Both the position numbers and the translations under genes were made by a program. A DNA stretch of 64,000 bases from Lama guanicoe (lineage: Eukaryota). The notes beneath the pieces were generated by a model that did not search any database, was not told the DNA's origin, and saw only the letters and a list, made by a program, of their open reading frames with translations. The first letter of the stretch is position 1; each line of letters opens with the position of its first letter. The stretch is from contig MU053758.1 in assembly GCA_013239625.1 (NCBI GenBank), positions 1-64,000 of the forward strand. Direction: 5' to 3'. Positions 448-31,665 of the stretch are shown in pieces.

Positions 448-599
448 ACATAGCACCTCTTTACATCTTTACATCTAAATGTCATCTCCTCACGGAGGCC
501 TCCTTGACCAGCTTACCCAAAACAGACCCCTTATGTCAGACACTATTGGTTGTAATTCCAACATCCGTTCTCCCTTGCATCCTGTTCCTTGCTAAGCAG

Positions 600-1125: not shown

Positions 1126-1189
1126 CTTCACTGTCTTCCTATTGCCAATTTTTTTCCTTTATGAAGTTTGTCAATATTTCATATCATTT

Positions 1190-1350
1190 ATTCCTTTGTG
1201 TACTTGTCTTTTGTCTGCATATACCACCCTCCTGTCATCCCAGGATGTAAACTCCATGAGGACAGGGGCCTTCTCTGTCTTCTTCATCACTGTATCCCCA
1301 GTGTCTAGCATGACACAAGAAGCCTCCAATGTATATGTGTTAAATGAATG
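1190..1350 (+). mobile_element. L2 3' end fragment
   Basis: gtaaactccatgaggacagggg...tgtatccccagtgtctagca...aaatgaatgaa, typical of the L2 tail. Confidence 0.65.
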
Positions 1351-2619
1351 AAGAAAAAAAGATGTTCGTCTATAATTATTTGCTATAATTACCACCCCTC
1401 CCACGTTGGCTCTGAGCCTGGAAGTAGAATCAACCTTTGTTTAGATATTACATACAGATCACACATTCCCACACTTTGGAAAAGCACAGGCTATGAGATT
1501 AGCCATACCTGCCATTTATCAGCTGTGTGACTGTGAGCAAGTTACTTGACTTCTCTGAATCTCCATTTCTTCATTTCAAAAATGGTAATATGAAAATAGG
1601 ATTAAATAAGATTATGCATTTATGAAACAACTGGTCCACAGTCAGTGTTCAAGATGTATTTGTTCTCATCTCCAATCTGCACACCTGGCTGGAGGGGAAA
1701 ATGGTCTGTGTAGCAACAGATTGGGCCCCTCCTGAAGCTGGTGCACCAGCGATGCTCTGCCCCTAATCTTTGCCTCAGCACAATTAACTTCTTCCTAGAT
1801 ACCCTCTTCGGTATCCTCATCCTTCATCCTCACCATCTCTCCGACTACAACGAGCCCAGGTCCACAGGATGCCCTCATGTCACGTGAGCTTTCCTGCTGC
1901 TTTTGCTTCCCAGGACACAACACGGGCAAGTGGAAAGAACATAAGGTCTTAGACCTAGAAGACGTGTGTTCCCATCCAGTCTGGCTCTGATGACATGAGT
2001 GACCACGAGCAAGCCACTTAACCTCTGAACCTCAACTTCCTTATCTGTAGTGGGATAATAGGTTGTAATGATGCTCAAGTGGGATGCTGTAGGCACACAG
2101 ACTTGAAAATTATAATACATATAAAACTGGTTTCTTTTCATATTTTCAACATTCCTGCTAGTGAGGTTGGAATAGAAGCAGACATACTAAGGCTATTCTT
2201 GACACATTCCAGAGCATCCTGCCTTGTGTTTCCTGGCCACAGTCTTCCTAACCAGCCACTTCAACACCCTTCATTATTCATTCATTCAGCAAATACTTGT
2301 TGAGTGTCCACCGTGTGCCAAGCACTGTTGTATGTTCTGGGAATAGAACAATGAAGACAACAGACTAAACATTCAGGTCTCACAGGGCTTGCATTCTGGT
2401 AGGCAGAGGAAAAGACTGTGGGCAGTTAGGGCAAACTCTTATACAACCTGAATAGTGCTGCCATGCACGTCTCTGGTCATTTGATTGTACCAAGTGGGGA
2501 CAAAGAAAGCAGACAGGGAGGAGAGGAATGCAAGAAAAAGAAGTTGAAAGAATCCAATCATACTAAAATCCAGAAATGGCCTTGGTTTCACTAAAATTAA
2601 GTGTCCATACACCAGTTAG

Positions 2620-3550
2620 GTAGTATCTCAGCTAAGAATGCAAAATCTGAATCTAATCATGAGGAAACATCAGACGGATCCCAGATGAGAAACACTCTTT
2701 TTTTTCCCCTCCTGTTTTAATGTGATAAAAGACAAAGAAGGTTGAGGTCAAATTAAAGAAGACTAAAGAGATATGAAAAATTAAAATGGTACCTAATTCT
2801 AGACTGCATCCTGTATTTGGCAGGGGGAGATTGCTATAAAGTTCATTATTAGGTCAAGGGAAAAAATGGAGGGCAGAAGGTAGATTAAATTTATACAGAT
2901 TGTATAACAGGATGTCCTTATTGTTAGAAAATACAAAGAGAGAAAAGGGAAAGAGGGAGGGAGAGAAGGAAGGAGCAATTGATAAGCTTCAAAAATTCAT
3001 AAACAGAAACCTCATTTAAAATTGAGTTGGGAGGCCAGTAGGGCGAAGTTTTCACACCCTACCAACAGGTAGAGATCCAACAGGAAGAGATACCTTGGTA
3101 TCTCCAAAGGAAGGCTACTAGATTACTATCCAGCAGGAGGGAGAAAAAATTTCTCCTTGCCTGAATTTCTCCTTGCCCAGCAACAACCCAGCCAATAAGA
3201 GGCTGTCACAACTCAGCCAATGAAGAGCCACTACACTTCTAACTCCCAGTTTCCTCCAAGTCTTTGTTTATAACAGCCCCTCCCAACTCCCCCTTCTCCG
3301 CTATAAAGGAAAGGTCCTCTCCTTTGTTTGCAAACTTGTCTCTGGGTTGCCATAGTTTGCATGTTCAGAGTCTGAATTCTTTGCTGTTCTCAAATGAACC
3401 CAATTTGCTGGTAAGATAACTGGCTGTTTTATTGTTTTAGATCAACAAAGCAAATAGAACAAATTGTTAGCAACAGATGAATTTGAGTAAAGATTACACT
3501 GGTTTTTTGTGCTATTCTTGCAACTTCTCCAAATAAGTCTTTAAAAAACT
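2620..3550 (+). mobile_element. Old L1 (L1MC4-like) 3' fragment interrupted by an LTR
   Basis: aatctgaatctaatcatgaggaaacatcagac and gtgctattcttgcaacttct motifs flank the LTR. Confidence 0.6.
2977..3447 (+). mobile_element. ERV solo LTR (boundaries approximate)
   Basis: Two CCAAT boxes (~3192, ~3217), TATAAA at ~3302, ends in ...gatcaaCA, and splits the L1 fragment. Confidence 0.55.
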
Positions 3551-4029
3551 CTTTTTTCCCACGGGACCCACACTCTAAGACCAGCCCCTTTGCTAAATTA
3601 GTGCATGACCCTGAATGAATCCCTTCCTCTCTCTCGGTCCCATTTTCTAGTCCAGAGGGTTTCTAAGGTTCTTTCTGGCTCTAGCAATCAATGTCCCACA
3701 ACACAGGTCGCTTCTGGACAGGGCTTTTGGAAAGAAGACAGCCCCTCCGTCTCTTAGCCCACAAGTTACTTCACCACTACTTTCTCCAGGGTGCTCACCC
3801 GTCCTCTTTCATCGGCCATAAACTTGCCCCTGCCCAACCCTGCCACCAACCCGCAGGCCCAGCCCCTCTTTCTGAGTGCCTTAGGGCCCATCTTCTGGCA
3901 GGCTGTAGCAAGGATTCAGGACAGGCATGTGCATTAATCCCCCAAGAAACTCCAACCCCCAAAAGGCTTTGGGACAATTTCTGGGCATTTAGTACCACCA
4001 AAGAGAAAAGGCTTTTCAGCGTGGGCCTG

Positions 4030-4700
4030 CTGCTGCATGGCTTTTTGGGAATTGTAGTTCATCGTTGAAGAGTCGGGGAACTAGGCTAAGGGGACAAGCC
4101 ACCCTTCCCAGAATGCACAGCGCTCGCCCCCACCAATCCAAAGTGCTGATCTTGGAAGGAGGGCGGGGAAGAGGAGGAGCTGCCCGGCGCACGCGCAGTA
4201 TGTGTGGCTGGGGAATTCTTGTCGAAGTCAGAGTGGAAGCCAGTGAGAATGGAGCGGGGAGCTCGCGGCCCACGTCCTGGCGTCTCTTGCAGACCCGGTC
4301 TGCACTCCCATTCGCATGAAGTTTGGGCGGGCGGGGTGCATGCGTGGGTCCACCTCGGGCCGGAAGGGTAGGGAGTGAGCCCAGGAGGAGCCAGGGGTTG
4401 CGTAGAGTAAGGTAGGTATATATGGGGACAGGGTGAGGAATAATCCAGAAGCTGTGTAAAAAAAGGAAAGGCTGATGGGGACTGGGTGTTCTGGTCTCCG
4501 GAAAGAAATATTTAAGTGCAGGGGGAGAGATCAAGGTAGCCTGAGAAGTTGCGGTCTGGGGAGGAGGGGCGGGGAGACTGAAGTGGACGCAGACGACGGG
4601 GTGGGGCAAGACAAAGTGCGGGGGTAGATTCTAGCGAGGTCAGCAGTACTCCCGCCCGCCCACCCCCGCTCCAGGGCTCTCCCTCGCGGTGCAGCTATTG
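4030..4700 (+). promoter_or_regulatory. PHB1 CpG-island housekeeping promoter
   Basis: CpG-rich. ACTACAATTCCCA on the minus strand at 4046-4058, ZNF143/SBS-like TTCCCAGAATGCAC ~4105-4118, CCAAT 4133-4137, GC box 4161-4168, NRF1-like GCGCACGCGCA 4187-4197. Confidence 0.85.
4197..4242 (+). other. PHB1: PHB1 non-coding exon 1 (start approximate)
   Basis: AGTATGTGTGGCTGGGGAATTC...GTCAGAGTGGAAGC resembles the recalled human PHB 5'UTR; followed by gtgaga donor at 4243; lies inside the CpG island. Confidence 0.75.
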
Positions 4701-4759
4701 AGAATCTTCTCGCCCATTTGTTCTTTTTTTTTTTTTAATGGTTAAATGTGTAAACTTTA

Positions 4760-5030
4760 CCTTTTAAAATTTTTCTTCTTAATTGAAGTATAGTCAGTTT
4801 ACAAGATTATGTTAGTTTCTGGTGTACGGCATGTTTCAGTTATACATATATATAATTCCTTTTATTATTCTTTCACTAGCTCCCTGTGCTATACAGTAGG
4901 ACTTTGTTGTTTATTTTATATTTAGTCGTGTGTATCTGCAAATCCTGAACTCCCCCAATTTATCCCCCTACACGCACCCCGCCCCCCTTTCCTGGTAACC
5001 ATAAGTTTGTTTTCCATGTCTGTGAGTTGC
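4760..5030 (-). mobile_element. Cetartiodactyl-type L1 3' end fragment in PHB1 intron 1
   Basis: aattgaagtatagtcagtttacaa...ggtaaccataagtttgttttc, the reverse complement of the L1 tails at 27.9 and 29.7 kb. Confidence 0.8.
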
Positions 5031-5726
5031 CCGATTCTTTCTTGGTATGATAGCCCCAGAATGTCATCCAGCTCCTGCTTCCATGATAATAGGTCGTTCT
5101 TATACCTGATGTGAGAAGCAGTGTGGTGAGGAGTTGAGCTGTGCTTTCCAGAATTTGACCCCCAGGTTCTAATCCTGGTTGTTCACTCAGCTGTGTGATC
5201 TTATGTTCCTCAGGTTACCACTCTGTGTGCCTCAGTTTCCTCACCTGCAGTGATCTTCATAAGGGTTGGTGTGAGGATTAAATACACAAATTGCTGTTGG
5301 AAGACTGCCAGAAATAAAAGTTAGCTATTTTGCTGTTGGAGTCACATTGTTTTCTGAACCAAAATCACCCAGAACTAACTACACAGCTTCTCCCAGGGCC
5401 TACCTGTCCAGGAGGTGGGAAGGTGGTTTGGTTTGGTGCTAAGGTCTCTCTGGGTATCAAGTCCATGCCTCCTTCCCCTTTTGAACTAAGTGCCCCAGAC
5501 CCCTTTTCTTAAATGGTAGAAAAAGAAGAAAGCAGAGGAATTGATAATACACGTTTACAGGCTGCAGAGTGTTATTTATGAAATGTCCTTCAGTGGATGA
5601 TTCAGAGCCCTCAAGAGTGGGGGAAGAAATAGCCAGCAGAGAGAGAGGGCTTTCTCTGAGGATTTGGGGATCAAGTTGCTTTGTTTGTTTTTCCCCCCTT
5701 AGGTGTGAGTGGGTCCAGCAGGAGAC

Positions 5727-5814
5727 ATGGCTGCCAAAGTGTTTGAGTCCATCGGCAAGTTCGGCCTGGCCTTAGCCGTTGCAGGAGGCGTGGTGAATTC
5801 TGCCTTGTATAATG
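5727..5814 (+). CDS. PHB1: PHB1 exon 2 coding part (exon starts 5703; ATG at 5727)
   Basis: Acceptor ttcccccttAG at 5701-5702; gacATGG; encodes [29 protein letters not shown]; donor G|gtaagg at 5815. Confidence 0.97.
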
Positions 5815-8800
5815 GTAAGGTCACTGCCCTTTGCCAGGCGATTTGTATTGGTCTGCAGAGCCCATGTGACACTCCTGTTGGCAGCCGCAGTTTGTGAATA
5901 TGTTTGTGACCAAGAGGGCTCACCTACTGCCCTCCTGCGCCATGTGGCTGCCTGGTCATCAGAGCCTCTGTCCTTGTAGCCATAGATTCACTCAGAACCT
6001 TTATTCACAAAGAGCCTCCCAGCCTACTTGAATGTTTCCAGCTGCTCTTGTTAATTTAAAGTCATGCTGCACCCCCCAAATGCTGCAAGAGGGAGCCAGA
6101 ATTTGGCTGGCCAGCTGAAATGAAGATCTCGTTTGTTCTCTTCTGCCTGTGTTTGGAGCAGCAGGGGCTTTAGACCTTTGGTGACTTTGTCCTGAGCAGG
6201 CGCTTTGGTTCTGCTATGGTTGGGTTGTTCCAGAGCAAATATCTTTGAGATGCACTGCCCAGCTTTTACCAGTGTGGCAGTGGTTCAGGCCGGCTTTTCT
6301 TCCACTTTCGCGTGTGACCTCAAGCAAGTTGCTTCCCCCTCCCTAGGCCTCAGCTTTCTCATTGGTCAGGCAATGGGGTTGCACTTGTTTTTTGTCTGAG
6401 ACCCCCTCTAACTTTGATGGTCTCTGACTTTCACTGTTGGAAAGCAGCAGTAGATTGACACACCTCGAGTGTGACTCTGACAGGAGGATTACTTTCAGTG
6501 GGAAGATAATTTGGACCAACTATAAAGTCCAAAAGGGCAGAGAAAGAAAGCAGTTGGTCAGAAAAGCCTGCTTGGCTCCTGTAGCACAGGTTTATACCCT
6601 GATCTTTTTGGCCACGCCTGCATAGCTGGACAGTAATCACCATCACTAATTCCTCTCTGGATCAACAAGACAGCTCCATAGCCCCTTAAAACCTTAGAGA
6701 AACCAGGCTATTGGAAAGAAAGAGTGGGGCCTTCCAAATTTTAGGATTGCCATCGTGAGGGTGCTGCTTCTGGGAACACTGGGTTAAACTGGAACCGGGA
6801 AGGGATGTGGTAAGAGTGAAGACCTTGGTGGGTTTGGAAAGAAGTTTGAGGAGGTGATTCCTGGAAATGTGTTGGTAGGAGTTTGGGGATGGGGTGGTTA
6901 ATCAGAAAACTAGCAGCCAATTGTTTCAAGGAGAAAGATGCTGAAGATCCTGTGACCAGAGTCCTTGGGAAGACACATGGGACGGCAAGTGGTGGCTTAG
7001 TTCTATACCTGTTTAGAAGCCTCTAGAGACCAGAAGTGTGAGAAGACAGCAGGAGAGGGGAGACTTAATAAGTAAACGGAAAGCATCAGGGATCTTTTAA
7101 AGACACGGTCATTTTGGTTAAAGAGTGAGGGGATTTTTCTGACCCATCATTATCCTTTGTTCCTAGTGGATGCTGGACACAGAGCTGTCATCTCTGACCT
7201 AGTGGAGTGCAGAACATTGTCGTAGGGAAAGGGACTCACTTCCTCATCCCTTGGGTACAGAAACCAATTATCTTTGACTGCCGCTCTCAACCACGTAATG
7301 TGCCGGTGATCACTGGTAGCAAAGGTAAGGCGTGCCTGTGGGTCAGGTCAAGTAGAGAGTGTGGAAGGGGTGCTGTGGGATCCAGAAGGAGTTGAACTTC
7401 AGGTAGTAATAATTCCTGGCATATTTTTCCTGAAGAGTTTTATGTGGCTTCAGAGAAAAATATTCAGGCATGCCTCAGGGGTACTGCAGGTTCAGTTCCA
7501 GACCACCGCGGAAAAACAGATACTGTGATGAGGCGACTTACGTGAATTTTTGGTTCCCAACGCACACAGAGGTTCTGTTGACCCTATACTGTAGCCTATT
7601 AAGTCTGTAGTAGCATTATTTCTAAAGAAACAATGTACATACCTTAATCAAAAAAAATTTATGGCAAATAATGAAATAATGCCATTTGCAGCAACATGGG
7701 AGGACCTGGAGATTATCATACTAAGTGCAGTAAGTCAGGGAAAGACAAATATCATATGATCTTCCTTGTATGTGGAATCTTTAAAAATGATATAGATGAA
7801 CTTTATGAAACAGAAGCAGACTCACTGACATAGAAAATGAACTTATGGTCACCAAAGGGGAGAGGAGGAGGGATAAATTAGGAGTCTGGGATTAACAGAT
7901 AAACACTACTACATATAAAACAGATAAACAGCAAGAACGTGCTGTACAGCACAGGAAACTATATTCAGTAATTTTTAATAACCTATAATTGAAAAGAACC
8001 TGAAAAGGAACGTGCATATGTATAACTGAATCACTTTGCTATACACCGGAAACCAGCAGCAGTGTAAATCAACTATACTTCAATTTTTAAAAAATACTTT
8101 GTGGCTAAATATGCTAACCATCCCCTGAGCCTTCAGTGAATTGTAGTAGTAACATCATAGATCTCTGGTCACAGATCACCGTAACAAGTATAATAATAAT
8201 AGAAAAGTTTGAAATAGAGCAAGCATGACCAAAATGTGACACAGAGACATGAAATGAGCAAATGCTGTTGGGAAAATGGCACCAATAAATTTGCTTGATG
8301 CAGGGTTGCCATAAGGCTTCAGTTTGTAAAAATGCAGAGTCTGTGAAGCTCAGTACCAGGTGTGCCTGTGTTCTTAAGACAGACACACAGTATACAAATT
8401 TGGAGAAAGGCACAAAGCTGTCTTTCCAGAGTTATGTAGTGATCCAGTTTTAAATAAATCTCAACGTGCCTCGTTCCCTCGGTGGACCCTTCCCAGCGGT
8501 TCTTGGTCCCCAGGGTGACTGGAAGCCAATCTGCAGCCGTCCTATTTGCCTTCATAGCTGACTTACCCTTTGCCTTCTTCCCAAGGCCTCTGTTTCCAGC
8601 CGTGCTGCCCTCACACTGTTATCTCCCAGGCCTGATGGTGTCTGATGTATCACTGGATGCCCAGTTAGAGCCTCACATGAATCACTGTTCTCCCCTACCC
8701 TGCGCACAGGGTGCACGGGCAGTGAATGGAACATGGCACCAATAAATTTGCTTGATGCAGGGTTGCCACAAACCCTCAGTCTGTAAAAATGCAGAGTCTA

Positions 8801-11800
8801 TGAAGCTCAATACAAGGTGTGCCTGTGTTCTTAAGACACACACACAGAGCTGTACACATTTGGAGAAAGGCGCAAAGCTGTCTTTCCAGAGTTACGTAGT
8901 GATCCAGTTTTAAACAAATCTCAGTATGCTTCTGCTCCCCTGGTGGACCCTTCCCAGTGGTTCTTGGTCCCCAGGGTGACTGGAAGCCGATCTGCAGCTG
9001 TCCTGTTTGCCTTCACGGCTGACTTACCCTTTGCCTTCTTCCCAAGGCCTCTGTTTCCAGCCGTGCTGCCCTCACACTGTTATCTCCCAGGCCGAGGCCC
9101 ACATCCTTGAGGGCAGTCTTGTGTCTGATGTATCACTGGATGCCCAGTTAGAGCCTCACATGAATCACTGTTCTCCCCCACGCTGCGCACAGGGTGCACG
9201 GGCAGTGAATGGAACGGCAGGTGCTGGCTCCGCGGCGCTGTGTCTGCAGCAAGAGGAGGGGTGCGTGGATGTTGCTGCTTCTCAGCAGATGTTTGCTTTC
9301 TGTGATGGTGCCAGGCTTTGTGCGGGGTCGGGGGGTCGGGTAGGTCAAAGATGGCTAAATTGGGGGCCTCTAGGGGCTCTGTCTAGATAGGGAGATAGAC
9401 GTGTGAACAGGCAGTTAGCGGGGAGTGGGGTGAGGACGGGAGCCAGGGTCGTATGGCGTGTAGGGGAGCAGAGGAACGTGTGGCACTTGAGAGTGAGATG
9501 TGCTTTGTGCCGAGGAGGGGAAGGGTCCGTTGGCATTGCCTGGTCTGTCCTGTCGCTCTTGGCCAGGGACAGGAAGGAGCCTCCTGTGAAGGCTCTGACT
9601 TGCCTACTGCATCAGAGGAAATCAACAGTGGGGTGAGGTTAGTGGAGAACATTCATATTTTAACTTAAAAGCCTAGTCCTAAACTTCCCGCTGCTTTGGG
9701 ATTTCTCTCTCTACTACTTTGCAGTTGTTCTAAGGATGCATGATGCACCTGTCTACAAAACTTGATAGAAGGAGGTGGAGGGTATAGCTCAGTGGCAGAA
9801 TGCATGCCTAGCATGCATGAGGTCCTGGGTTCAATCCTCAGCACCTCCATTAAAATAATAAATAAACGTAATTGCCCCCCCCGCCCACACCCCCACCCCT
9901 GTGGGAACTTGGAGAGACCAGGGACTGGTGTGTAAACACTTCCCACTTCAGTGCCTGGTTCAGAACTCATCTCATGGGCGCTTGGTCCACGCTGTTGATG
10001 GCCGCAAGCAAGCTGTGCGGTGCGTTAGCTGTGAATTGTCAGGGGAAGTTGTTCCTCCCTCCCTGGGTCCTTTGACTGGGCCACGTAATGAGAAGCGGCC
10101 TCTAGATGAGCTGATAACCCCTCACATCTGTTGCACATTTGCCAGAGTGCTTTTGTATCTGTTTCCTCCTCCAGTTTGTCCCAGCGTGCCTGGAAGGCAG
10201 ATGCAATCATCCCCATTCTCACAGAGGAGGAAATGAGCTGAGATGGACTAAGGCTTAGTGAGGCCACGTAATTAGTCCGCAGCAGAGTTAGGACAGCAGC
10301 CAGGCCTGGGACTGCACTGCTTGTCCAGTCCCGAGTGGACTGTTTCCACTGGGCCCACGATAACCTCTCGGGGGCACATTCCTGCCTTGGGCCACATTGA
10401 CCAGGCCTCGGAAAGGCCTTACCCTAGAGTTCTTGGCATTGGCCTGTTTTCTTAAAATATTCAGTGTTCCAGACATTCCATAGCACCTGTTAGACATATA
10501 ACCTGAATTTGCTTGTATCAGAGGGCATTCAGGACACACTGAGTAGCTGTCATCACTAGAAACCTTGGAGAAGTTTTTACCTCTGGTGCGCTGCTGGATT
10601 CTCTACCAAGGAAACCATGCGCATGTGCTCGGCACCCTCTACGATGGGATAATCAGCAACTTATACATTGTAGCAAATTGGGGCTAGGAGAAGTCATAGA
10701 AGGCTACTGTGGTTTTTATTTTTAACTCCAGCATTTGTCCCCTAAGATTTACAGAATGTCAGCATCACTCTGCGCATCCTCTTCTGGCTGGTTGACAGCC
10801 AGCTTCCCCGCATCTTCACCGGCATCAGAGAGGACTGTGACGAGCACGTGCTGCCGTCCATCACGACAGAGATCCTCAAGTCCGTGGTGGTGAGTGAACA
10901 GGGCCTCCAGGAGACCGCTGGGTGGCAGGAAGAGCTCGGCGGTGGGTGGTTGGGAGAGGGCTGGGATTCCGCATCCTTGTTATCCTGACTGGCTCCTCTG
11001 CCCTCCTCTGGAATTAGGCTCGCTTTGATGCTGGAGAACTGATCACCCAGAGAGAGCTGGTCTCCAGACAGGTGAGCGATGACCTCACAGAGCGAGCAGC
11101 AACCTTTGGGCTCATCCTGGATGACGTGTCCTTGGTAAGAGCCACGGGGAGCCTGTGGAGAGGGGCAGCAGCTGTGTAGGTTCCTGGCTCCACTTCCGGG
11201 CAGACACATCCATTCCTAGACGTGAGGCTTGTAAACATCAAACCTTCTTGACAGTATGAAACAGTCTCTTTGGGTTTGTTTTCAGATGGGGGTTTTTACC
11301 TCCCCTGTGCCACAGACATTTTTCTTCTGATTTTTTTGGCCCTACCCGGGTGGTTCGTAACCAATAGATTTTTCACCTTCCGCAAACTGTTTCCCAGAGC
11401 TCCCTGGGAAGTGACGTCTTGTTAACCCCGTTGGACGCAGGCAGACACTGCCTGGTAGAGACTAGAGCACAGCGTGGGTAGGCTTTCTCCCTCGCACAGA
11501 CCTCCCAGCCTGAGCCCTGGGAATCTCCTGACACCTGGGGTCTGAAGCTCAGTGAAGCGAGCTCTGGGAGCTCCCCAGGAAAGGTGACAGAGTGTGAGTG
11601 AATGGTTCTGTTCCCCGAAGCCTGGTGCAGAGGGAGGGCAGGGACGTCTCCGAGGCATAAGCTATCCTCTCGAGACTGGTGTGTGTGTGTGTATGACACC
11701 TGATGCCATGATGCAGGCAGCAAGCGGTGCAGGCAGGGTAGCGCTTCAGAGTGAGGAAGGTGAAGGGAAGGGGTCGTGTTTCTGATTCTCCGGGAAAAGT

Positions 11801-14800
11801 CATTTGGAGTGATTTGTTCGGGTGGTGAGGAAGGTGCTTCCTGTTCAGTTCTGTGCATTGCCCGGGAAAGGCACTGTTTCCCGCTCCGCATCTGTGCAGC
11901 TGTTTAAACAGTCCCCGGCACCCAGCTCTAACCCGGGATCCTGCTCCACCCTTGCAGCAACTGCCCGCCCGCAGCGAAGGGCTTGTGGGCTCCCTCTACT
12001 GGCGAGACGCCAGGCTGCAGCCACTTGGCTCCTGACCAGAGCCGTTCCTCAGGCTCTCCTGCTTAGTGTTCACCTGAACTCCTCGGCTGTGAGAAGAGGC
12101 TAAGTAAAACCTAAGGAGAAGCGTGGCATTTTGCTAGACTTTAACCACATGCTCCATTCCGGGGAAATGCGGGCTGACCACAAGAAACCGTATCTGAGAG
12201 GTGTGAGAAGAAAGTTAGATTTTTGTGGGGAATTTGCTGCCCTCAGCTGGCCCTTTTAGAAAGAAATTTTATTCCTTAATTACACATTTCATTCTCATTT
12301 CTCAGGATTGTATATTCTTCCCCCAAATTCGAACAAGGGTCCAGAAAGGGAGCAGGCAGAGAAGGAAAGCTGCAGTCTAAGAGTTAGGAGTGTTATAAAT
12401 TCTGGGAGACAGTGGACTGGGACTTACTCTGGGAGAAGTTTGGGCTCCTCATATGTTTTTAAAAAGCATATTGGGAGATTGGGAGGATGGGGGAAGAAAT
12501 GAAACAAGTAGAATTTGATAGCAAAACCAATGCTGTTCACTCCTTTCTTTCTTCCTTCTTAATAAAAAGCTAGATGAATAAATTACCCTAGACAAGGCAT
12601 TGGGGTGCTGAGATCTGCTCTCATTGTTTGCGTTGTCACTATAGATGGTCACTTCGGTGAGGTCTCCGTCACTCACTTTATTAGGGAAGGTGTATGCATA
12701 ACAGAATTTTAAAACTTCATCCTAAGCAATAGCTTTACCTGCCTTCCCTTTCTTTTAAACTCTTTACCAGAAGCACTCACACATAGGGAATAGCATGATT
12801 TGCAAGATCATGGTTTGGAAATCTCTCTCGTCCTCTTCCTGTTTTGTGGCGGAGGTGCTGTGAGAAAGAAGTGGACTGGTTAATCCATAAGCAGAGAGCA
12901 TCACGCTCTTGAATCCCTGAGAACCAGCTGCACCCCTCACTCTCAGGCTCAGTTTTCCATCTGACCTCTCTGGGGGCTTCAGACAGGCCATCACAGGACC
13001 TTGGAAGAGCGCTAGTCAGTGGTGGGGTCCTGGCACCCACAGGTCTCCTCCCTAGGGAGGTGGTCAGTTGGAGTAGATACCTTCTGGTGCCCATGGGCTG
13101 TTTCCTACCTGAGAGGGACAGAAAGATGTACAGGAGCCCGTGGGGCGGCCGAGGATTCCAGGCTGTGGACTCAGTTTGGACGCAGACGTGGAGGTGGAAG
13201 GGTGGTCTGGCCTCACGATGCCTCCAGCTGCTGGAGCCATTGCTGGCTGCCCCCTCCAGCGGCCATGGGGCCTTAGAGCAGCACTGTCTCAGCAGTCACA
13301 CCGCTTCGTCTCGCGCTCACTCTGTCCCCTTAGATGCATCTGACCTTCGGGAAGGAGTTCACAGAAGCCATAGAAGCCAAGCAGGTGGCTCAGCAGGAAG
13401 CAGAGAGGGCCAGGTTCATGGTGGAGAAGGTGAATGCGCGACCAGATGGCAGGAGCCCCCTCACTTTCTTCTGTGCTCAGCCTCCCCGTCTGCTGGGTGG
13501 CCTGGAAATTCATCATCTGTCATCTCTGCTTCCGGGATCATCGGAAGGGGACTGAAGGGACTGCTCTCCTGCAGTTGGTTTCAGAGTCTTTGGGGCCTCG
13601 TCGGGGATATGTGAAGTTATGTTCCTAAATCACTGAAGGGTGATTTTTTTTCCCCAGTTCCCTAAGATCAAAAACACTCGCCCACAAATAAAAATGTTTC
13701 TTCTGGAATATTTTCAGCTTCACTGGGAAGTCATTTTTAACTGCGGTGACACAGTGAAAGCTGACAGCAAAAAGGATCAAACGTTGCGCCAGATGCGCTA
13801 TCGTCACTGGGGTTTTTTAAAGCACTAAACCCATCCAGATGTGTCGGGGTGTGCTGGGACAACGTGTATCTGCACAGAGCCTGGTCTTCGGGTCTTTGCA
13901 AAGGTGCATTTATTTCTTGTAACCCCCTCTCCCCAGCACTAATTCTCTTGGAGTTGTATTCCTAATCCAAGGCACTTTAGTTCTTAGAATCAGGAAAAGG
14001 AAATATATGGCTGGGCATTTAACTTTAGAGACTATAAACTCAGTGTGAATGGAGACTTTTTTTTCCTCCTTTTTCCGCCTACCTCCAGCACCTCGAACAC
14101 GTCCAGAACTGCGCCTGGAGATCGGTACCAGGTGCTCGGTAAACATTGGTTGAGTGCGCCGTCCCAGAGCCTCATTGAACAGCTCTGTGTCCATTTCAGA
14201 GAGGCTTGCTCCTCTCCTCCCGCGCTTGTGAAGGTCGCGCATCGCAGATAGATACCCTCCTACTGACGAGGGAAGGGGAAGCCTGAGGGAGCTTGTTCTG
14301 GGTGCCTGAGTTCCTGGTCAGGAACCAGTTTAGCTCACAAGCAACCTGAGGGAGCGTCACGTGCCTGCTGCTCCTCCTCAGCTGTGCTGACTTCGATGCG
14401 TCACTTTGACTTGGGACTGGAGAGAAGGATGAGTCTGAGGACTGATTCTCCCTTCCTTTCTCTCCTGCTTTCCTTGGCCTGGGATCCTCCTGGCTCAGAG
14501 TAAGGTGGCTGGGCTGGGTTGCTGTTAATATTATTAAGGAGTTTGAAATAAGACAGCTATTCATACAGCCAACAGAAACGTGCCCCTACGGCGGTGAGCA
14601 GTGGACATTACATGAGAGAGGAGGATTACTAACCCCTTCTGGAGGGGGAGGTAAATGCCCAGAGGTCCTTCAGGACCCAGTGAGGCTGCCTAACCTGGTC
14701 CTCTGGAAGCTGTAGCCCACTGTCCAGCGCCCCGAGGTGTGATCTTGGTCCCTCTCTGCCTCCACTCCGTAGGCTGAGCAGCAGAAGAAGGCAGCCATCA

Positions 14801-14985
14801 TCTCTGCGGAGGGCGACTCCAAGGCCGCGGAGCTGATCGCCAACTCGCTCGCCACCGCAGGCGATGGCCTGATCGAGCTGCGCAAGCTGGAGGCCGCAGA
14901 GGACATCGCATACCAGCTGTCCCGCTCTCGGAACATCACCTACCTGCCCGCCGGGCAGTCGGTGCTCCTCCAGCTGCCCCAGTGA
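5727..14985 (+). CDS. PHB1: Prohibitin 1, multi-exon CDS join(5727..5814,7167..7324,10747..10889,11018..11134,13334..13429,14773..14985); frameshifted in exon 3 as assembled
   Basis: Exon translations reproduce prohibitin from [21 protein letters not shown] to [18 protein letters not shown]. All introns are GT-AG. Exon sizes are 88/158/143/117/96/213 nt versus 88/162/143/117/96/213 expected for the 272-aa protein. Confidence 0.97.
7167..7324 (+). CDS. PHB1: PHB1 exon 3, 4 nt short (frameshift near 7199-7202)
   Basis: Acceptor cctAG and donor AAAG|gtaagg. Reads [11 protein letters not shown], then after a frame change [40 protein letters not shown]. Length is 158 nt rather than 162. Confidence 0.93.
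7465..8368. mobile_element. Internally deleted Tigger1-type DNA transposon with a nested L1
   Basis: Terminal inverted repeats CAGGCATGCCT and AGGTGTGCCTG; Tigger1-like gttccagaccaccgc and ccaaaatgtgacacagagacatgaa. Confidence 0.8.
7666..8087 (+). mobile_element. L1 3' fragment inserted in the Tigger element
   Basis: aatgaaataatgccatttgcagcaacatgg...aaatcaactatacttcaat; imperfect flanking duplication aaaaaatttatggc / aaaatactttgtggc. Confidence 0.85.
8276..9215 (+). repeat. Tandem duplication of a ~460-480 bp unit in PHB1 intron 3 (8276-8732 and 8733-9215)
   Basis: Both copies start ATGGCACCAATAAATTTGCTTGATGCAGGG and end GGGCAGTGAATGGAAC. Confidence 0.95.
9774..9890 (+). mobile_element. tRNA-derived camelid SINE (Vic-1-like)
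   Basis: GGAGGGTATAGCTCAGTGG A-box, GGTTCAATCC B-box, A-rich tail. Confidence 0.85.
10747..10889 (+). CDS. PHB1: PHB1 exon 4 (8 missense differences from the canonical protein)
   Basis: Encodes (D)[47 protein letters not shown]; 143 nt; acceptor cctaAG, donor GTG|gtgagt. Confidence 0.95.
11018..11134 (+). CDS. PHB1: PHB1 exon 5
   Basis: Encodes [39 protein letters not shown]; 117 nt; acceptor ttAG, donor TTG|gtaaga. Confidence 0.97.
13334..13429 (+). CDS. PHB1: PHB1 exon 6 (3 missense differences)
   Basis: Encodes [32 protein letters not shown]; 96 nt; acceptor cccttAG, donor AAG|gtgaat. Confidence 0.96.
14773..14985 (+). CDS. PHB1: PHB1 exon 7 coding part to TGA stop
   Basis: Encodes [70 protein letters not shown]; acceptor ccgtAG. 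Confidence 0.97.
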
Positions 14986-15107
14986 GGCCCGCCCGCCTGC
15001 TCCTCCTGGGGCAGCTGGACCACCGCCCGATGATCCTCCACACCACCTTCCTTCCGCCCCCGCCCCAGAAATCACTGTGAGACTCATGATTGGCTTCAAG
15101 TGAAGGA

Positions 15108-15113
15108 AATAAA
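15108..15113 (+). terminator. PHB1 proximal polyadenylation signal
   Basis: AATAAA about 120 nt after the stop codon, with T-rich sequence downstream. Confidence 0.75.
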
Positions 15114-15882
15114 AGTTAGATCACCTCAGATCTGTAATTACTGTATCTAAACTGAAGCTCTTTCATTCTTATTTCCATCCCCCTTTTTATCCCCCTCCCT
15201 ACCAAAAATTGCCAGGTGCCTCCACAGACCAGCCTGGCTCCCGTCTTCGGCCTGCTGGCGCGCAGCCTAGGTGCTGGCAGTTGGCAGAAGGAAGGCAATG
15301 CTGTGTGTGTGACGAGCTGGGAGCACAGCGGGCAGCCGTGTAGCCTCCAACCTGTGGTTTATTCACAGTTGGAGGAAGATGGCACACACAGCTGAGCTGC
15401 GAACACAGGCCTCAGTTTTCTCTCTGCACAGACCGAGCTGAAGGCAGGTGCTGGGGAGGCGCAGAGGGGAAGCGATCTGTCTCTTGCCATCAGGCTGATT
15501 CTCTAACTGTGGGGCCAGCGGAAGCAGGTGTGTACAGACAGCGAGGTTTGAAGAATCTGCCCTGTGAAGGTGGGTGGGCCTGATTTGCTGCCCCCCCCCG
15601 GGGTCCTAAGACTGGAATGGACTTGGCTAGTGAGAGAGCAGGCTGGACCGAGATGTGAGTCCTGGAGACTTCCTCTCCGCCTCCCACCTTGGTGTCTCAA
15701 ATACCCGGTGGAATTCCAGCTTGAAGGATTGCATCCTGCCGGGGCTGCACATGCCTGCCAAGGACATGCGCATCCTGCGTTCCTGGCCCCCTCGTTCAGA
15801 GACTGCCCTCCTAGAGGGCTCTGTGCCTGTGCCTTGAAGGAAACAACCACAAGAAGAAAAGAGTGGTGTGTAAACCGCTGTC

Positions 15883-15888
15883 AATAAA
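15883..15888 (+). terminator. PHB1 distal polyadenylation signal
   Basis: AATAAA about 900 nt after the stop, followed by GT-rich gggtttgttttgtgg at ~15919-15933. Confidence 0.8.
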
Positions 15889-18800
15889 TGACACCCAGAC
15901 CTTCCAGCTCAGTCTTCCGGGTTTGTTTTGTGGGAGTCATGGGATTAGACCAGGACAGTCTGGCACTTTGTGTGTGCACGTGTTTGTATCACCAGCTAAG
16001 ACAGAATCTCCAGCAAGGCAGAAAATGCTTTGCTTTCAGAAAACACTTCGCGCCGTGTTCTAGCCCCGTCCCCAGCCTGAAATGAATCTCAGTGGTGTCG
16101 GGTGAGGTTTGTCATGACATGGCACGTCTTAGGAGGTGAAGGTGGGTGGGGGTTCGTCAGCTTCCCCCTTGTGGCTTTTGGTGCCACTGCTCACTGGGAG
16201 TTGTGGGCCCACCCGCCAAGCAGACAGGAGTGAGCAATCCATACCAAATACACGTGTGCCGGAGCCCTCCGCGCGCTCTGGTTAGACGTCCACATCATTA
16301 GCCGGCTTCGGGTGCCCTTCCTGTCGTAGGCTTAAATTGCTTATTCTGCTTTGCTTTGATGAGGAAATGACCTGGCATTTGAAGGGAGGCCAGCTTTATG
16401 CATTTTGAATGGTGGGAGGACCTACAATTGAGCAATGATCCATGCAAATCACCCACCCCAAATCCTTTTAGGAACGAAACAGAACGTGCAGTGAGCTCTC
16501 ACGTTGACTGCTTTAACCTCTGCTCTCAGGTGAATCCCTGGCTCACCACCTGGCCCACCACCTGGCCAAGGAGAGTGGTCTCTTAAGAGAACTTCGCGGG
16601 CTGGTCTCTGACCTGGATTCTGCATTTCCTTCCCCAGAGTGATAGGGCCAGCTGTCAGCTGGGAAAGGTGGGGACGCATGCGCACATTTGGGGTGGGCTG
16701 GGGGCTGAGTTCTCCCGGTGCTGCGCCCTGCTCTCCTCCCAGGGCCTCTCTGCAGGGATCTAGTCCCTTCCCACCCTGGTGAGCACTCAGACCAGGGTGT
16801 AATGGGCGCCTGACCCTCGGCTGGACCTCTCACCGAAACCTCATTCTCTGTGGTGCTTGGCAGGCCTCCCAGCTAGCCCCCGTCCCCGCCGCCTCCCTGG
16901 CGTCGGTCATCCCAAGGTATCTCCTCCCGCTTGGGCTTCTTGCTGTAAGAGTAGTGAGGCCTGGTAATGGTGCGGTGCCTGGACTCACAGAGCGTGTGAC
17001 GGCTGCAGCAGAAAGAGCCTGATTCCTAAACAGCTTCCAGACCAGCTTCCCCTCGGCCTCCCTCCTTCCCTGCTGCTTACTGCTTTGGACACCCTTGGGG
17101 GGGCGGGAGCAGGAGGCTCCTCTCTTCCCCAGGCCCTTTATAAAAACGCAGTTGTGTTTCATGCCTTTGGCAGGAGATTGGGTTTCCTACCCAGGTGTCT
17201 CTCTCCGGCTTCTGGGTTCCCTCTGCCTTCGGGTCAGCCCTTCAGCACAGGCAGGCAGGTTCCTGCTGGTTTCGCCTGTAGCCTCCCCACCACGACGGTG
17301 CCAGGGGCAGCCGGGGGGCCTCCTTCTGCCTTGACTTCCGCCAAGTAATTCTCTTCACAAATGTTCAAGGGCTGTTAACTGGCTAACTAGCCCGAGTCCC
17401 CTGATGGCCTCCGGGTTCCTCCAGAAGCTGCCACAATGGGCCTTTATCAGCTCGGGATTCTCTGGGCCCCGATCAAAAGCCCTGGCCTGGCCTGGCCAGG
17501 GAGGGGGCTGAGCGGGGAGTATCTTCGTCCTTCTGTCCTTTGGTCAGGCTGAATAGCTCCCTTGTTCAGGCTCCGAGGGTCACGGACTAGGAAGGCAGTG
17601 GGCCCTGGATGGGGAGGAGGAGAGAAAAACCCTCGAAGGGTTGCTATTTTCCTTAAACTGCTGCTAGTTTTACACAAGTTCTGCCACTGTGGACCGATGA
17701 GGGAGGAGCTGTGCTGTCATCCCCGGGCGGGTCGATTTGAAGGACAGAGAGAGACAATGGTAACTTCATACCTGGCTTAGCAAATGCTGTTCTAATTGCT
17801 GGTCCGGCCTCAGCAGGGGGACGTGCGGTTAGGACCTCCCCTCAATCTTTGCCATCCGCCAATCTTGTGGGCAAAGTAGCGCACCATGACAGAAAGTAAC
17901 CTGGGTGAGAAGGTCGCAGGAGGCTGCAACTGATTTCCCTGTCTTTCCTAGGCGTCCTGCCCATCCTGAACACCGCTCCAAACTTCATTTTTCTAAAGCA
18001 GATCTCATCCTCTTCCTGTTGAAAAACCTTCAGAGGCCACTCCTCCCTGGCTTAAAGAAGGGGAAATGTCTCGTCCCGGCATTCAAAGCCTTCCGCCTGC
18101 TACCTTTCTAGTCCACCCAACTCTACTTTGCCTTCACCAACCTACCTAGTGGCTCCTGTGGGGTGGGGAGTGTTTGAAAATGCAGGTGGAAAGGGGCAGC
18201 GGCTCCTGGCATTCGGTGCTGGGGAGGGGAGGTGGCAGGGATGCTATGAGACCTACTTTGTGTGGGACAGACTCTACAACAACAAACTGCCCCCAAAGTA
18301 ATGCCAGTAACATCCCCCCTTTGGAAATACGCTCCAAACCGAGTTCCTCGCTCTTGTCTGCATGTCCCCCATACTTTCACATCAGCCCCTGTGCGCACAG
18401 TTTCATCCCAGACAGACCTTCCCCCACATTTCCCAGGTCCTGATGTCCCCCATCCTTTGAGTGCTAGCTGAGACTCTTTGTCTAACACGAAACTTCCGCT
18501 GATGCCCGCCTCCCCCATCCATTACCTCTCCCTTGCCTGAAATCTTGATCCACGTTCCCAAGAGGCACTTAGCGCTCTCTTGGGTTGCAGTGTGTGTGTG
18601 TGTGTTCTCCCTCCTACCCTACACGTATGGAGGGCAGGATCTTGATGTGATTCAATGTTCTCCCTTCTTCCTTCCCCAACCACCCCCTAAGCTTTTCCCC
18701 GAGTCAAACCTGCCTGGCTCTTGGTGGGAGTTACTGAATGTCTGTCAGGTGAACAGATGAAGGAATAGAGACACAGGACTGAGGTTAGACGTGAGGGCTG

Positions 18801-19546
18801 GAAGTCCAGGCCCTTGAGTTCTCCCACGCCATTATGTTAAGTTGCCTCAAGCTATTGTGAATCAGGGTCCAGCCCAACCCATCGGCTAACGTCCCACCCT
18901 GAGCCACTCCCCAGTCTCATCACCCTCCCGCTTCCTGTGGCTGCCACGTGCAGACTCTCCCCTCGCTACCGCCTGCCCACAGCTCACCCTCTCCTCCTCC
19001 GTCTGGAACACCTCTCCTCCCTCATTCACTCAATCCCTGTCCCCCTCTGTCTCAAGCCCAGCTTAAAATCCCTCGTCTCCAGGAATTCGCCTGTGGCTCA
19101 CCTCTTCCCAACTTCCCTGGTGCATAAGGTCTCCCTTTATTAAAAAGGCGTTAGCTCTGGAACTCTGGCAACACAGGAGTTGAGAACTGAACAAAAAAGG
19201 GAGTGAAGAGGCCTGCCCCAGCTGGTAGAGGCTGGGATGCTTTGGCAAGGCCAGTTGCACATGGCTGGAAAAGAGAATGAATGGAAATGTTCTGGCCTGG
19301 GGAAACCAGTTTATAGTTGAAAGAGAATGCCTTTGCCCAGGACGCTGGGTGGAGAGGGAGGAGGGTATCTTTCCAGCAACCTCCACTCAAGCTACTTCAG
19401 AAGAGAAAGTGAAGCTGAAAGGGCAAGGCTACTTTGGAGGAGCTTAAAGCTGTTGTCATCCTGGGAAGATAGGACAGACCACCTGGATTAGCCAGAAAAG
19501 CCTTTCATCAATGCTCTAAGTTTGGCTGAACGAGCTGCAAGCACTT

Positions 19547-19850
19547 GGGTTGCAAACTGTGGCTTCGGACCACGTGCAGCTCGCTTCTGGGTTGTGCACA
19601 GCTCACGAGCCAACGGTGCTTTTCACACTTTTAAATGGCTGGGAAAAAATCAAAAGAATACTATTTTGTGACCCATGAAAACCATACAGAAGTCAACCTT
19701 CAGTGTCGGCGAGTCAAGTTCTGCTGGACAAGAGCTGTGAGCGTTTGCATGACACCAGCAGAGATAACAGCTGCAACCAAGATCACACGGCCTGCAAACC
19801 CTGGAGTATTTGCTCTCTGTCCCTTTATAGGAAACGCCTGCTGACCTCTG
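19547..19850. mobile_element. hAT-Charlie MITE (MER58B-like)
   Basis: gggttgcaaactgtggc start, aaaaatcaaaagaatactattttgtgac core, ccctttatag...tgctgacctctg end. Confidence 0.65.
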
Positions 19851-21009: not shown

Positions 21010-21235
21010 AAAGAGCATGGGTTCTAGAATTAGAACGTTTGTGTTTGGATTCTGACGCTGCCACTTACTAGCTTGGGAGACCTTGGGTAAATCACTTAAC
21101 AACTTCTAGCGTCCCTTTTTTCTTATCGAAACCAAGGGCGTGAATATCCACCTTGCAGTGTTAAGGAGTTGTGGAGATGAGAGATGTGAAGGCATTTGGC
21201 AGGGCTCAGCACACAGTGGGTGCTCAAAATACTCT
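21010..21235 (+). mobile_element. MIR SINE
   Basis: ctgccacttactagcttgggagaccttgggtaaatcacttaac MIR core. Similar MIR fragments at ~1500, 1950, 5150, 26150, 36560 and 48600. Confidence 0.65.

Positions 21236-31619: not shown

Positions 31620-31625
<6 letters not shown>

Positions 31626-31662: not shown

Positions 31663-31665
<3 letters not shown>

Follow-up and report, generated by a model that had tools for sequence, protein, structure and literature searches.

Does the window, as we call the whole analysed stretch of 64,000 nucleotides of Lama guanicoe DNA, carry the working gene for prohibitin 1 (PHB1; SPFH/Band 7 family, Pfam PF01145), and what has made its exons so unequal? The original prediction described an exon-by-exon mosaic, with exons 2, 5, and 7 pristine and exons 3, 4, and 6 resembling those of a pseudogene, and attributed the latter most readily to overwriting from a retrocopy. 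The window copy was compared here with the other PHB1 copies of the same assembly and with protein models. The features discussed below are listed in Table 1.

Table 1. Features of the PHB1-like locus in the window (positions in the window; comparisons are with the copy on scaffold C6403 where indicated).
Feature	Position	Strand	Description
Multi-copy duplicated unit within the window	1-36155	+	From BLAST maps
5' part (promoter, exons 2-3, introns)	455-8385	+	93-95% identity to both other copies throughout
Promoter / weak CpG island, partly decayed	3900-4800	+	38 CpGs vs 45 in C6403
PHB1 exon 2, coding part	5727-5814	+	Exon start 5703; 88 nt; 2 synonymous and 1 UTR change vs C6403
PHB1 exon 3	7167-7324	+	158 nt instead of 162; 4-nt deletion after 7199, causing a frameshift
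Local tandem duplication	8271-9215	+	Units 8271-8732 and 8728-9215
Patchwork region	9875-23400	+	190 substitutions in 13.5 kb vs C6403
Diverged patch 1	10564-10847	+	End of intron 3 and most of exon 4; 19 substitutions, 8/19 intronic
PHB1 exon 4	10747-10889	+	143 nt; 8 missense and 2 synonymous changes vs C6403
PHB1 exon 5	11018-11134	+	117 nt; 1 synonymous change; within a near-identical block
Diverged patch 2	13248-13657	+	End of intron 5, exon 6, start of intron 6; 38 substitutions, 31/38 intronic; 2 indels
PHB1 exon 6	13334-13429	+	96 nt; 3 missense and 4 synonymous changes vs C6403
PHB1 exon 7 including stop codon	14773-14985	+	0/213 nt differ from C6403
AATAAA poly(A) signal	15108-15113	+	Found in the window copy and in the C6403 copy

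Coding capacity of the window copy and its relatives

Scaffold C6403 of the same assembly contains an intact, intron-containing PHB1 (819 nt when spliced, 272 amino acids, canonical AG/GT borders throughout), and its reading, which equals the canonical PHB1 protein, served as the reference. It was cross-checked against three protein models: the translation equals P0017 apart from R41W, which is peculiar to P0017, the camel model P0008 over exons 2-5 and 7, and pig P0010 over exon 6.

Against this reference, exons 3, 4, and 6 of the window copy (158 + 143 + 96 = 397 nt) have 15 missense changes and the frameshift, and exons 2, 5, and 7 (88 + 117 + 213 = 418 nt) have no amino-acid change, just as had been claimed. 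The missense changes are F39S, D47N, E52K, and R72Q in exon 3, which has 3 synonymous changes besides; N89S, R97W, P98L, A100D, S109G, G111R, Y114C, and R117H in exon 4; and T171M, V183I, and V199M in exon 6. Nei-Gojobori counts, from which codons 41-43 were excluded, gave 15 nonsynonymous and 11 synonymous differences for exons 3, 4, and 6, and 0 and 3, respectively, for exons 2, 5, and 7. The probability of such clustering, previously put at about 2e-5, was reproduced ((397/815)^15 = 2.1e-5) and becomes 4e-4 when multiplied by the 20 ways of choosing three of six exons. Exon 7 is indeed untouched, and the word pristine holds for exons 2, 5, and 7 at the protein level, but not for the DNA of exon 2, where 3/114 nt have changed like their surroundings.

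The five coding-region introns have AG at every acceptor and GT at every donor. Splice sites and poly(A) signal were thus rightly described as intact, but the promoter is not fully so: 11 CpGs have been lost to TpG or CpA in the window, compared with 2 in C6403, whose CpG-island promoter is better preserved, and the GC box beside the CCAAT box has disappeared. When the frame is read through all exons, a stop is met at codon 49 instead of the 272-codon open reading frame of working PHB1, and it is most likely, as far as the sequence can tell, that the window copy makes no PHB1. A transcript that skipped exon 3 would have an open frame of 218 codons. The 15 missense changes, counted against a reference on which C6403, camel, and pig agree, depart from the near-invariance of the mammalian PHB1 protein. 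Single-exon translations are too short to be judged on the Band_7 profile (20.9 and 22.7 bits against a cut-off of 23.6 bits, with exons 4 and 7 giving no match); P0017 scored 122.7 bits. The pairwise omega of exons 3, 4, and 6 is 0.39, a value of about 0.5 being expected if constraint acts on only one of two lineages. This omega, the promoter CpG losses, and the transitions and CpG substitutions make up the pattern of change predicted for a neutral lineage.

BLAST maps placed the locus in a much larger unit. Positions 1-30968 are colinear with C6403:36849-1, that is, over about 31 kb including introns and flanks, and positions up to 36155 are colinear with C9403:12488-1, a scaffold that carries a third, partial PHB1 copy. 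The upstream edge of the unit lies near C6403:39194 and C9403:22355, and homology to C6403 continues beyond the coding exons for about 5 kb on the upstream side and 16 kb on the downstream side. The duplication is longer than 35 kb and present in at least three copies, all three of which are found at scaffold ends. C9403 and an orphan contig, C38634, have the same 4-nt deletion in exon 3 as the window; C6403 lacks it. Because of the intact C6403 copy, the third copy on C9403, and the shared duplication of more than 35 kb, the window copy is, on these comparisons, an unprocessed, duplicated PHB1 pseudogene (a paralogue) and not a working gene. Its introns and flanks are colinear with the parent copy, an intact parent is present (with an N gap in its intron 3), and the frameshift, the 15 nonsynonymous and 11 synonymous differences, and the decay of promoter CpGs indicate disabling mutation and relaxed constraint. 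It is neither intronless nor homologous only as far as the mRNA ends, and unlike processed PHB1 pseudogenes, of which a fragment on C3616 is an old example, it keeps the five introns of the coding region, all bordered by AG/GT, together with colinear flanks.

The linkage across the PHB1 exons of C6403 rests partly on scaffolding, the N gap (C6403:19837-20571) lying at the place that matches the join in the window described below. Exons 4 and 6 each occur only once in normal form in the assembly. PHB1 being an essential gene, these normal exons must lie in cis, which places both mutated exons together on the other copy. Synteny was also considered as a guide to the ancestral copy, but NGFR-type TNFR repeat matches at 784 kb on C6403 are about 760 kb from its PHB1 copy, a distance that does not settle the matter.

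Identity between the copies along the unit

Throughout the 5' part, the three copies behave as three near-equidistant lineages: among 3,992 columns free of gaps, 105 set C6403 apart from the other two, 93 set C9403 apart, and 94 the window, with a single column in which each copy has its own base. Local switches occur toward the end of this part, where the window equals C6403 in 8001-8250 and C9403 in 8251-8385. The assembler kept these copies, 5% apart, separate over the 8 kb of the 5' part; paralogues were thus not simply collapsed.

A different picture was obtained for the patchwork region. There, 145 of the 190 substitutions fall within 11 patches (2,361 bp, or 17% of the 13.5 kb; 3-10% diverged), and the other 45 are spread over the remaining 83%, in which the window and C6403 are 99.6% identical (0.40% difference). 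Transitions account for 140 of the 190 substitutions, and 68 are at CpG. A run of perfect identity of 1,401 bp (13725-15125) contains exon 7, and a small diverged cluster follows the poly(A) signal (15126-15179, 7 differences). Such a patchwork of near-identical and diverged stretches does not fit the uniform decay of one locus, in agreement with what had been argued from the exons. The patches reach into introns and intergenic DNA, 8 of the 11 lying in 8 kb of non-genic DNA downstream of the gene, and of four exons only two are reached by a patch (p = 0.39 in a circular-shift test). The patches take no account of exon borders, and the mosaic is not tied to exons. Selection that would keep diverged patches at damaged exons was rejected on the same figures.

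An older fragment (C1600:248957-250153, hereafter the 249-kb fragment) served as an outgroup. Over 85 intron columns of patch 2, the window alone differs at 7, the 249-kb fragment alone at 7, and C6403 alone at 9, that is, a three-way star, and in the neighbouring block the window equals C6403. Since derived bases are found in both copies of patch 2, the divergence is old and does not reflect sequencing error. The 249-kb fragment was tried as the donor of patch 2 and rejected, for of the 20 differences between the window and C6403 in 13241-13400, 11 group it with the window and 9 with C6403; by these counts it is an equidistant third lineage.

Targeted searches with 9870-15250 found exactly two copies in the assembly and one near-identical orphan contig of 268 bp. 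No third version, diverged throughout, was found in the assembly, which otherwise has only two old partial pieces of this region (the 249-kb fragment and the C3616 retrocopy), and the old patches can therefore be flanked only by near-identical blocks.

The contrast between exons was also found outside this assembly. P0153, an independent, NCBI-style model from Camelus dromedarius, shares four of the eight exon 4 missense changes with the window, has four private changes in exon 4, and has a pristine exon 5. The shared changes show the mutated exon 4 to be genuine DNA from an old lineage, and the pairing of a decayed exon 4 with a clean exon 5 occurs twice, in the window and in P0153. P0153 predicts the exon-3-skipped kind of product and, like P0135 and P0008, is one of the PHB1 models in camelid assemblies that skip exon 3 or exon 6. 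No other protein model with the mutated exon 4 was found above 89% identity among 116 proteins, and P0153 used as a query retrieved only itself at high identity among the best 120 of 5,033. Exact-word scans of metagenome contigs, with a word from the mutated exon 4 and another from a near-identical block, gave 0 matches and carry no weight either way.

Possible origins of the patchwork

The copies, their contents, and the patchwork are present in the assembly. We infer that the patchwork is present in the animal's DNA rather than in the assembly alone, and likewise in which direction sequence was exchanged. The choice does lie, as the original prediction held, between an assembly artefact and real gene conversion.

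On balance, the comparisons favour a pseudogene that was homogenised with the working gene, its old sequence surviving in patches. An old pseudogene lineage would have drifted neutrally, acquiring the 4-nt frameshift, the 15 missense changes, and the promoter CpG decay. Later, everything from about 8.7 kb to past 23 kb, the 3' two-thirds of the copy, would have been made nearly identical to the working copy by exchange between paralogues, through interlocus gene conversion and/or a later re-duplication, with short stretches of old pseudogene sequence persisting between the homogenised blocks. Exons 4 and 6 would happen to fall in stretches that escaped homogenisation and exons 5 and 7 in stretches that did not, which would give the appearance of an exon mosaic at the level of the gene; exon 2 would belong to the old 5' part and have only silent changes by chance. 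Tracts of high and low identity that alternate beyond chance and a relationship among copies that changes along the sequence are consistent with interlocus gene conversion, by which short stretches move between paralogous loci, so that copies are not independent along their length (PMC3790853, PMC4467073). The window would invert the usual situation, in which converted tracts are short and their surroundings diverged: its converted fraction would be 83% of 13.5 kb, with small remnants. An unparsimonious feature of this reading is that eleven small old patches in a 99.6% identical background call for several rounds of conversion or for one more donor.

The main rival to homogenisation, less probable in our view but a serious possibility, is mixing by the assembler: the animal would have a working PHB1 besides at least one diverged pseudogene copy with introns, the scaffold of the window would be a chimera of pseudogene contigs and working-copy sequence joined during scaffolding and gap filling, and its combination of exons would exist in no molecule. 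Several traces point this way. The copies are at scaffold ends, and the N gap of C6403 coincides with a join at 8732 in the window, where about 460 bp are duplicated in tandem and C9403 has a single unit. Unit 1 is C9403-like (99.1%), though the neighbouring 5' part is only about 95% identical to C9403, and unit 2 has C6403-like diagnostic bases. The whole is probably, from this composition, a gap-fill join between paralogue types, resembling a failed merge, and makes the linkage of exons 2-3 to exons 4-7 insecure. Six of eight orphan contigs are 100% identical to scaffold interiors, which indicates gap-filled sequence between 6.3 and 9.9 kb. The orphan contig C33721 carries a third variant of a near-identical block, one seen in neither scaffold, and ends exactly at a branch point, suggesting that the scaffolds are somewhat more alike than the reads. 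Position at scaffold ends and gaps, combined with gap-fill traces, is a mark of false duplication or of chimeric scaffolds. For older assemblies, PMC9516828 names gaps between duplicated pairs, wrong gap-filling, and discordant read pairs as such marks; the window resembles the cases described there in having duplicates on different scaffolds, near gaps, with gap-fill traces and exons misplaced between models. However, mixing should have left a 3' pseudogene diverged throughout somewhere in the assembly, and none was found over 9870-15250; in the 5' part, the assembler managed to keep apart three copies that differ by 5%; the blocks were not simply pasted, as they differ by 0.40% with derived bases on both sides; and the dromedary model P0153 has the same contrast between exons 4 and 5. 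Public reads were also listed: among 24 runs, 20 contain part of the stretch and 14 half or more, and the sampled words of the stretch reach 0.75 in the best DNA run and 0.34 in the best RNA run, values that fit a species divergence of about 1% and a missing part alike.

An unlikely alternative, false duplication of one locus, would have the 3' parts of C1600 and C6403 be one stretch assembled twice, as two haplotypes or through redundant assembly, with the 5' pseudogene part wrongly attached. C6403 terminates at the equivalent of 30968, short of unique downstream DNA, C1600 starts inside the unit and has the downstream flank, the background difference is only 0.40%, and the join at 8732 is suspect. 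But allelic noise cannot account for patches that are 3-10% diverged and contain exons 4 and 6 in mutated form; such patches require a second real template, of which the assembly has no other, and if the two versions were alleles, one PHB1 allele would have 11 missense changes in exons 4 and 6. Unlike the false duplications of PMC9516828, the copies here are 5-6% apart over 8 kb and carry pseudogene-type mutations, a divergence far beyond haplotype differences, so that some of the duplication, at the least, is real.

Processed PHB1 pseudogenes exist in other mammals. The reading of the original prediction, that exons 3, 4, and 6 of the true parent were overwritten by one of these, whether during assembly and polishing or by gene conversion, would account for changes that cluster in whole exons, and one old retro fragment is present. 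It has become very improbable, however, because the exon 4 and exon 6 patches include the intronic substitutions listed in Table 1 and similar patches occur in intergenic DNA. All 26 candidates of a whole-genome protein search were scored, giving 18 matches, and no young retrocopy or intact retrogene of PHB1 was among them. The intronless copy with the same variants that had been anticipated was searched for in this genome, and the only intronless piece is the C3616 fragment (codons 2-135; C3616:6840642-6840934 and nearby), which is 69% identical, lacks the 4-nt deletion, and matches the window at 8 and C6403 at 14 of 24 discriminating sites. The further suggestion that this lineage is losing, or has lost, its parent PHB1 and that another copy, such as a retrogene, has assumed its function could draw on a locus with a frameshift and 15 missense changes amid intact splice sites and poly(A) signal, but has next to no probability left: since the PHB1 of C6403 is intact, has its introns, and retains more of its CpG-island promoter, the parent is not lost and no rescue by a retrogene is needed, nor was an intact retrogene found.

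Consequences for PHB1 in camelids

The PHB1-like locus of the window should be annotated as a duplicated pseudogene and not as PHB1; the essential gene has not been lost, and the unequal exons are a commonplace side effect of duplication in the DNA or of how that DNA was assembled. The exon-skipping models P0135, P0153, and P0008 show that trouble with annotation is already visible in camelid assemblies. Should the patchwork be an artefact, it would serve as a case study of paralogues that, mixed at scaffold ends, yield a convincing exon mosaic.

Several human unprocessed pseudogenes exchange sequence with their working parents, namely those of the pairs CYP21A1P/CYP21A2, GBAP1/GBA1, and SBDSP1/SBDS. 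Like these, the window copy has introns, a segmental duplication, disabling mutations, and alternating identity; unlike them, its parent is PHB1, at least three copies exist, and the mosaic is known from an assembly alone. To our knowledge, only processed pseudogenes are known for PHB1, and a narrow search of the literature found no published description of this duplication. If the patchwork is real, it would be a clean non-human example of sequence exchange between a pseudogene and its essential parent, and PHB1 would become one of the few genes whose unprocessed pseudogenes are close enough for conversion.

A bolder and rather doubtful reading is that camelids have a lineage-specific cluster of three or more PHB1 copies with introns, in which ongoing conversion keeps a frameshifted pseudogene 99.6% identical to the working gene over most of its 3' half. 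If this were true, the exon-3-skipped product might give a variant prohibitin-like protein, and the pseudogene would be a standing reservoir of 11 missense variants, embedded in near-perfect homology, that could be copied into PHB1, a CYP21A2-like liability for an essential gene that encodes a mitochondrial scaffold.

Structure and decay of the PHB1-like locus

The PHB1-like locus of the window is an unprocessed pseudogene within a multi-copy duplication, and an intact gene is present elsewhere in the same assembly. The splice sites and poly(A) signal described as intact in the original prediction were recovered, all intron borders being AG/GT with AATAAA downstream. As a PHB1 reference, the exon 7 translation was used to query database proteins, which gave mammalian PHB1 matches; those compared were P0017 (272 aa), P0008 (Camelus ferus isoform X2, lacking exon 6), and P0010 (pig). 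Exon 3 of the window lacks 4 nt after position 7199 and carries F39S, D47N, E52K, and R72Q, exon 4 carries N89S, R97W, P98L, A100D, S109G, G111R, Y114C, and R117H, and exon 6 carries T171M, V183I, and V199M; the spliced reading meets a stop at codon 49. Exons 2, 5, and 7 contain two, one, and zero changes, respectively, every one silent. The claimed split, with 15 missense changes plus a frameshift in exons 3, 4, and 6, none in the other exons, and an untouched exon 7, was thereby reproduced, as was its chance probability of 2e-5, which becomes 4e-4 once the choice of exons is allowed for. Nei-Gojobori counts were 15 nonsynonymous and 11 synonymous changes in exons 3, 4, and 6, and 0 and 3 in exons 2, 5, and 7; pairwise omega in the former was 0.39, the expectation being 0.5 with one lineage constrained and the other free.

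Features of the PHB1-like locus and of the sequence around it
Feature	Position	Strand	Remarks
Coding exon 2	5727-5814	+	Borders AG/GT
Coding exon 3	7167-7324	+	Borders AG/GT
Tandem duplication (~460 bp), unit 1	8271-8732		99.1% C9403-like
Tandem duplication (~460 bp), unit 2	8728-9215		With C6403-type bases
Patch	10564-10847		19 substitutions, including 8 within intron 3
Coding exon 4	10747-10889	+	Borders AG/GT
Coding exon 5	11018-11134	+	Borders AG/GT
Patch	13248-13657		38 substitutions, including 31 within introns 5 and 6
Coding exon 6	13334-13429	+	Borders AG/GT
Coding exon 7	14773-14985	+	Borders AG/GT
Poly(A) signal AATAAA	15108-15113	+	

The promoter, also thought to be intact, proved otherwise: 11 CpGs have become TpG or CpA, against two in the copy on scaffold C6403, and a GC box adjoining the CCAAT box is gone. 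Such decay is typical of a silenced copy. The six exons of the C6403 copy splice to 819 nt (272 aa), with AG/GT at all borders, and its protein is identical to P0017 apart from P0017's own R41W, to camel P0008 across exons 2-5 and 7, and to pig across exon 6; an N gap (19837-20571) within its intron 3 is a caveat on this intactness. About 760 kb from this copy, C6403:784172-784531 holds three TNFR_c6 repeats in a single 196-codon open frame, NGFR-like as judged from the domain alone.

Among the 24 public runs listed, the share of sampled words of the stretch was at most 0.75 in a DNA run and at most 0.34 in an RNA run. Three RNA-type runs, one merely guessed to be RNA, contained about one third of the sampled words of the mostly intronic region 5700-15000, which suggests that RNA contigs include intron sequence from one of the copies. 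Scans of metagenome records for host contigs gave no hits. Further downstream, window 44000-45200 is a strong CpG island (GC 0.63 across 44-46 kb) whose open frames are long and GC-rich, one containing a poly-alanine run; it probably represents the 5' end of the following gene.

Copies of the duplicated unit and the retrocopy question

The assembly searched comprises 2.05 Gb in 55,231 contigs, the scaffold that begins with the window (C1600) being 3.94 Mb. The window exon 3 region found intron-containing matches in scaffolds C9403 (98%) and C6403 (91%) and in the small contig C38634 (321 bp, 98%); exon 3 is normal in C6403, and the 4-nt deletion of the window is common to C9403 and C38634. Scaffold-end mapping showed window 1-30968 to be colinear with C6403:36849-1, and window 455-9628 and 30369-36155 to be colinear with C9403:12488-1. 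As C9403 is colinear with these two segments only, its copy lacks exons 4-7. From this colinearity, the duplicated unit exceeds 35 kb and has at least three copies, all of them terminal on large scaffolds. In the third copy (C9403:1-12488; L010, L011), window-equivalent 9628 is joined to about 30.4 kb, the joint lying inside the primary 466-bp contig C44465, and window-equivalent 1886-4294, upstream of the promoter, is also missing. The likeness of C6403 and C9403 extends to about C6403:39194 and C9403:22355, after which they diverge. A narrow literature search found no published account of PHB1 being duplicated in camelids.

When P0017 was searched against all six frames of the genome, with 26 of 26 candidates scored, 18 matches resulted; these lay in six exons each of the window and C6403, exons 2 and 3 of C9403, a relative at 52-53% on scaffold C2396 that is presumably PHB2, an exon 6 fragment (C1600:248938-249024), and one intronless piece on scaffold C3616. 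The latter (C3616:6840642-6840934 and nearby; L046) is an old processed PHB1 pseudogene without introns at the exon 2/3, 3/4, and 4/5 joints. Its codons 2-135 are contiguous and 69% identical to the window and C6403 copies alike, it lacks the 4-nt deletion, and at 24 sites discriminating these copies it is C6403-like at 14, window-like at 8, and neither at 2. It is therefore excluded as the source of the window variants, and the proposed check for an intronless copy sharing them was negative, since the genome search gave only this unfit donor. Any reading that invokes overwriting by a retrocopy, as originally favored, or loss of the PHB1 gene has at most a negligible probability.

A patchwork of near-identity and its age

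Patchy near-identity of the paralogues accounts for the unusual exon pattern. Window 455-8385, where exon 2 is part of the diverged 5' stretch and shows silent changes only, is 93-95% identical to C6403, and long identical stretches are absent. In a three-way alignment (3,992 gap-free columns), C6403, C9403, and the window differ alone at 105, 93, and 94 columns, respectively, and all differ at one; which copies resemble each other switches locally. The three 5' parts represent three real lineages. Over 9875-23400, the window and C6403 differ by 190 substitutions (140 transitions; 68 at CpG), of which 145 fall within 11 patches covering 2,361 bp (17%) with 3-10% divergence; the remaining 45 correspond to 0.40% outside the patches. 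The longest perfectly identical run (1,401 bp, 13725-15125) has exon 7 inside it. Downstream of the gene are eight of the 11 patches, and only two of the four exons located here overlap one, a number that circular shifts equal or exceed 39% of the time. Since the patches occupy introns and downstream DNA and overlap exons at chance level, the exon-by-exon look is chance sampling of a patchwork indifferent to exons.

An isolated older PHB1 fragment (C1600:248957-250153, minus strand; L012/L013), containing intron 5 and the first two-thirds of exon 6, was used as an outgroup for the window and C6403. It lies inverted on the same scaffold, 235 kb downstream, and is about 77% identical in its far part and 92-96% over the 430 bp immediately preceding exon 6. 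Across the 85 intron columns of patch 13248-13657, private bases numbered 7 in the window, 9 in C6403, and 7 in the outgroup; in the neighboring block (231 columns), the window equals C6403 and only the outgroup differs (10 columns). The diverged patches are thus old, real sequence, as the substitution types, the omega value, and the promoter decay also indicate, together with a database protein. Among the matches listed, that one protein resembles the mutated exon 4: P0153, a Camelus dromedarius "prohibitin-like" model, in which N89S, S109G, G111R, and R117H recur alongside four changes of its own, while exon 5 is clean. The sequence encoding its tail is homologous to window 3790-3903 on the reverse strand, which points to inverted neighboring copies in its source assembly. 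Camelid PHB1 models are irregular in the database: P0153 and P0135 (also C. dromedarius) skip exon 3, P0008 skips exon 6, and the P0135 reading continues into intron 5.

Homogenization or assembly

We lean, with modest conviction, towards real homogenization between PHB1 paralogues as the origin of the patchwork. Targeted assembly searches over 9870-15250 revealed no diverged version of the blocks, the near-identical stretches between patches; the matches were only the two scaffolds, a 268-bp orphan contig (C33721), and two old incomplete pieces, namely the fragment near 249 kb and the retrocopy on C3616, so that no such version was available for displacement during assembly. Three copies at 5% divergence were kept separate by the same assembler, and the blocks are not fully identical, a 0.40% difference persisting; both points count for a real mosaic. 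That one locus was assembled twice is improbable. The assembly holds a single normal exon 4 and a single normal exon 6, which must be in cis in an essential gene, and therefore the mutated exons 4 and 6 also belong together.

Against these observations, several marks speak for a mixing of paralogues by the assembler, which we consider the main alternative, though less likely. Each PHB1 copy is located at the end of a scaffold, six of the eight orphan contigs match scaffold interiors at 100% identity, which is a sign of gap filling, and the two units of the tandem duplication at 8271-9215 are of differing paralogue type. C33721 has two bases absent from both scaffolds and stops a single base short of the first position at which the window and C6403 differ. 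Such marks fit published criteria for false duplications (PMC9516828). At the duplication site, which coincides exactly with the change of the window from diverged to near-identical relative to C6403, C9403 has a single unit and C6403 a gap; the duplication resembles an unsuccessful merge during gap filling. The two odd bases of C33721 (1-268, aligned to window 9874-10141) are adjacent, and this contig suggests a third near-identical version of the 3' part, either a further copy or an allele. The tandem duplication, gap-fill, and scaffold-end marks make the joining of exons 2-3 to exons 4-7 in the window insecure; no gap and no orphan contig falls within the patchwork of exons 4-7 itself. The PHB1 pseudogene of the window would carry more weight if exchange with the essential gene is real and ongoing.
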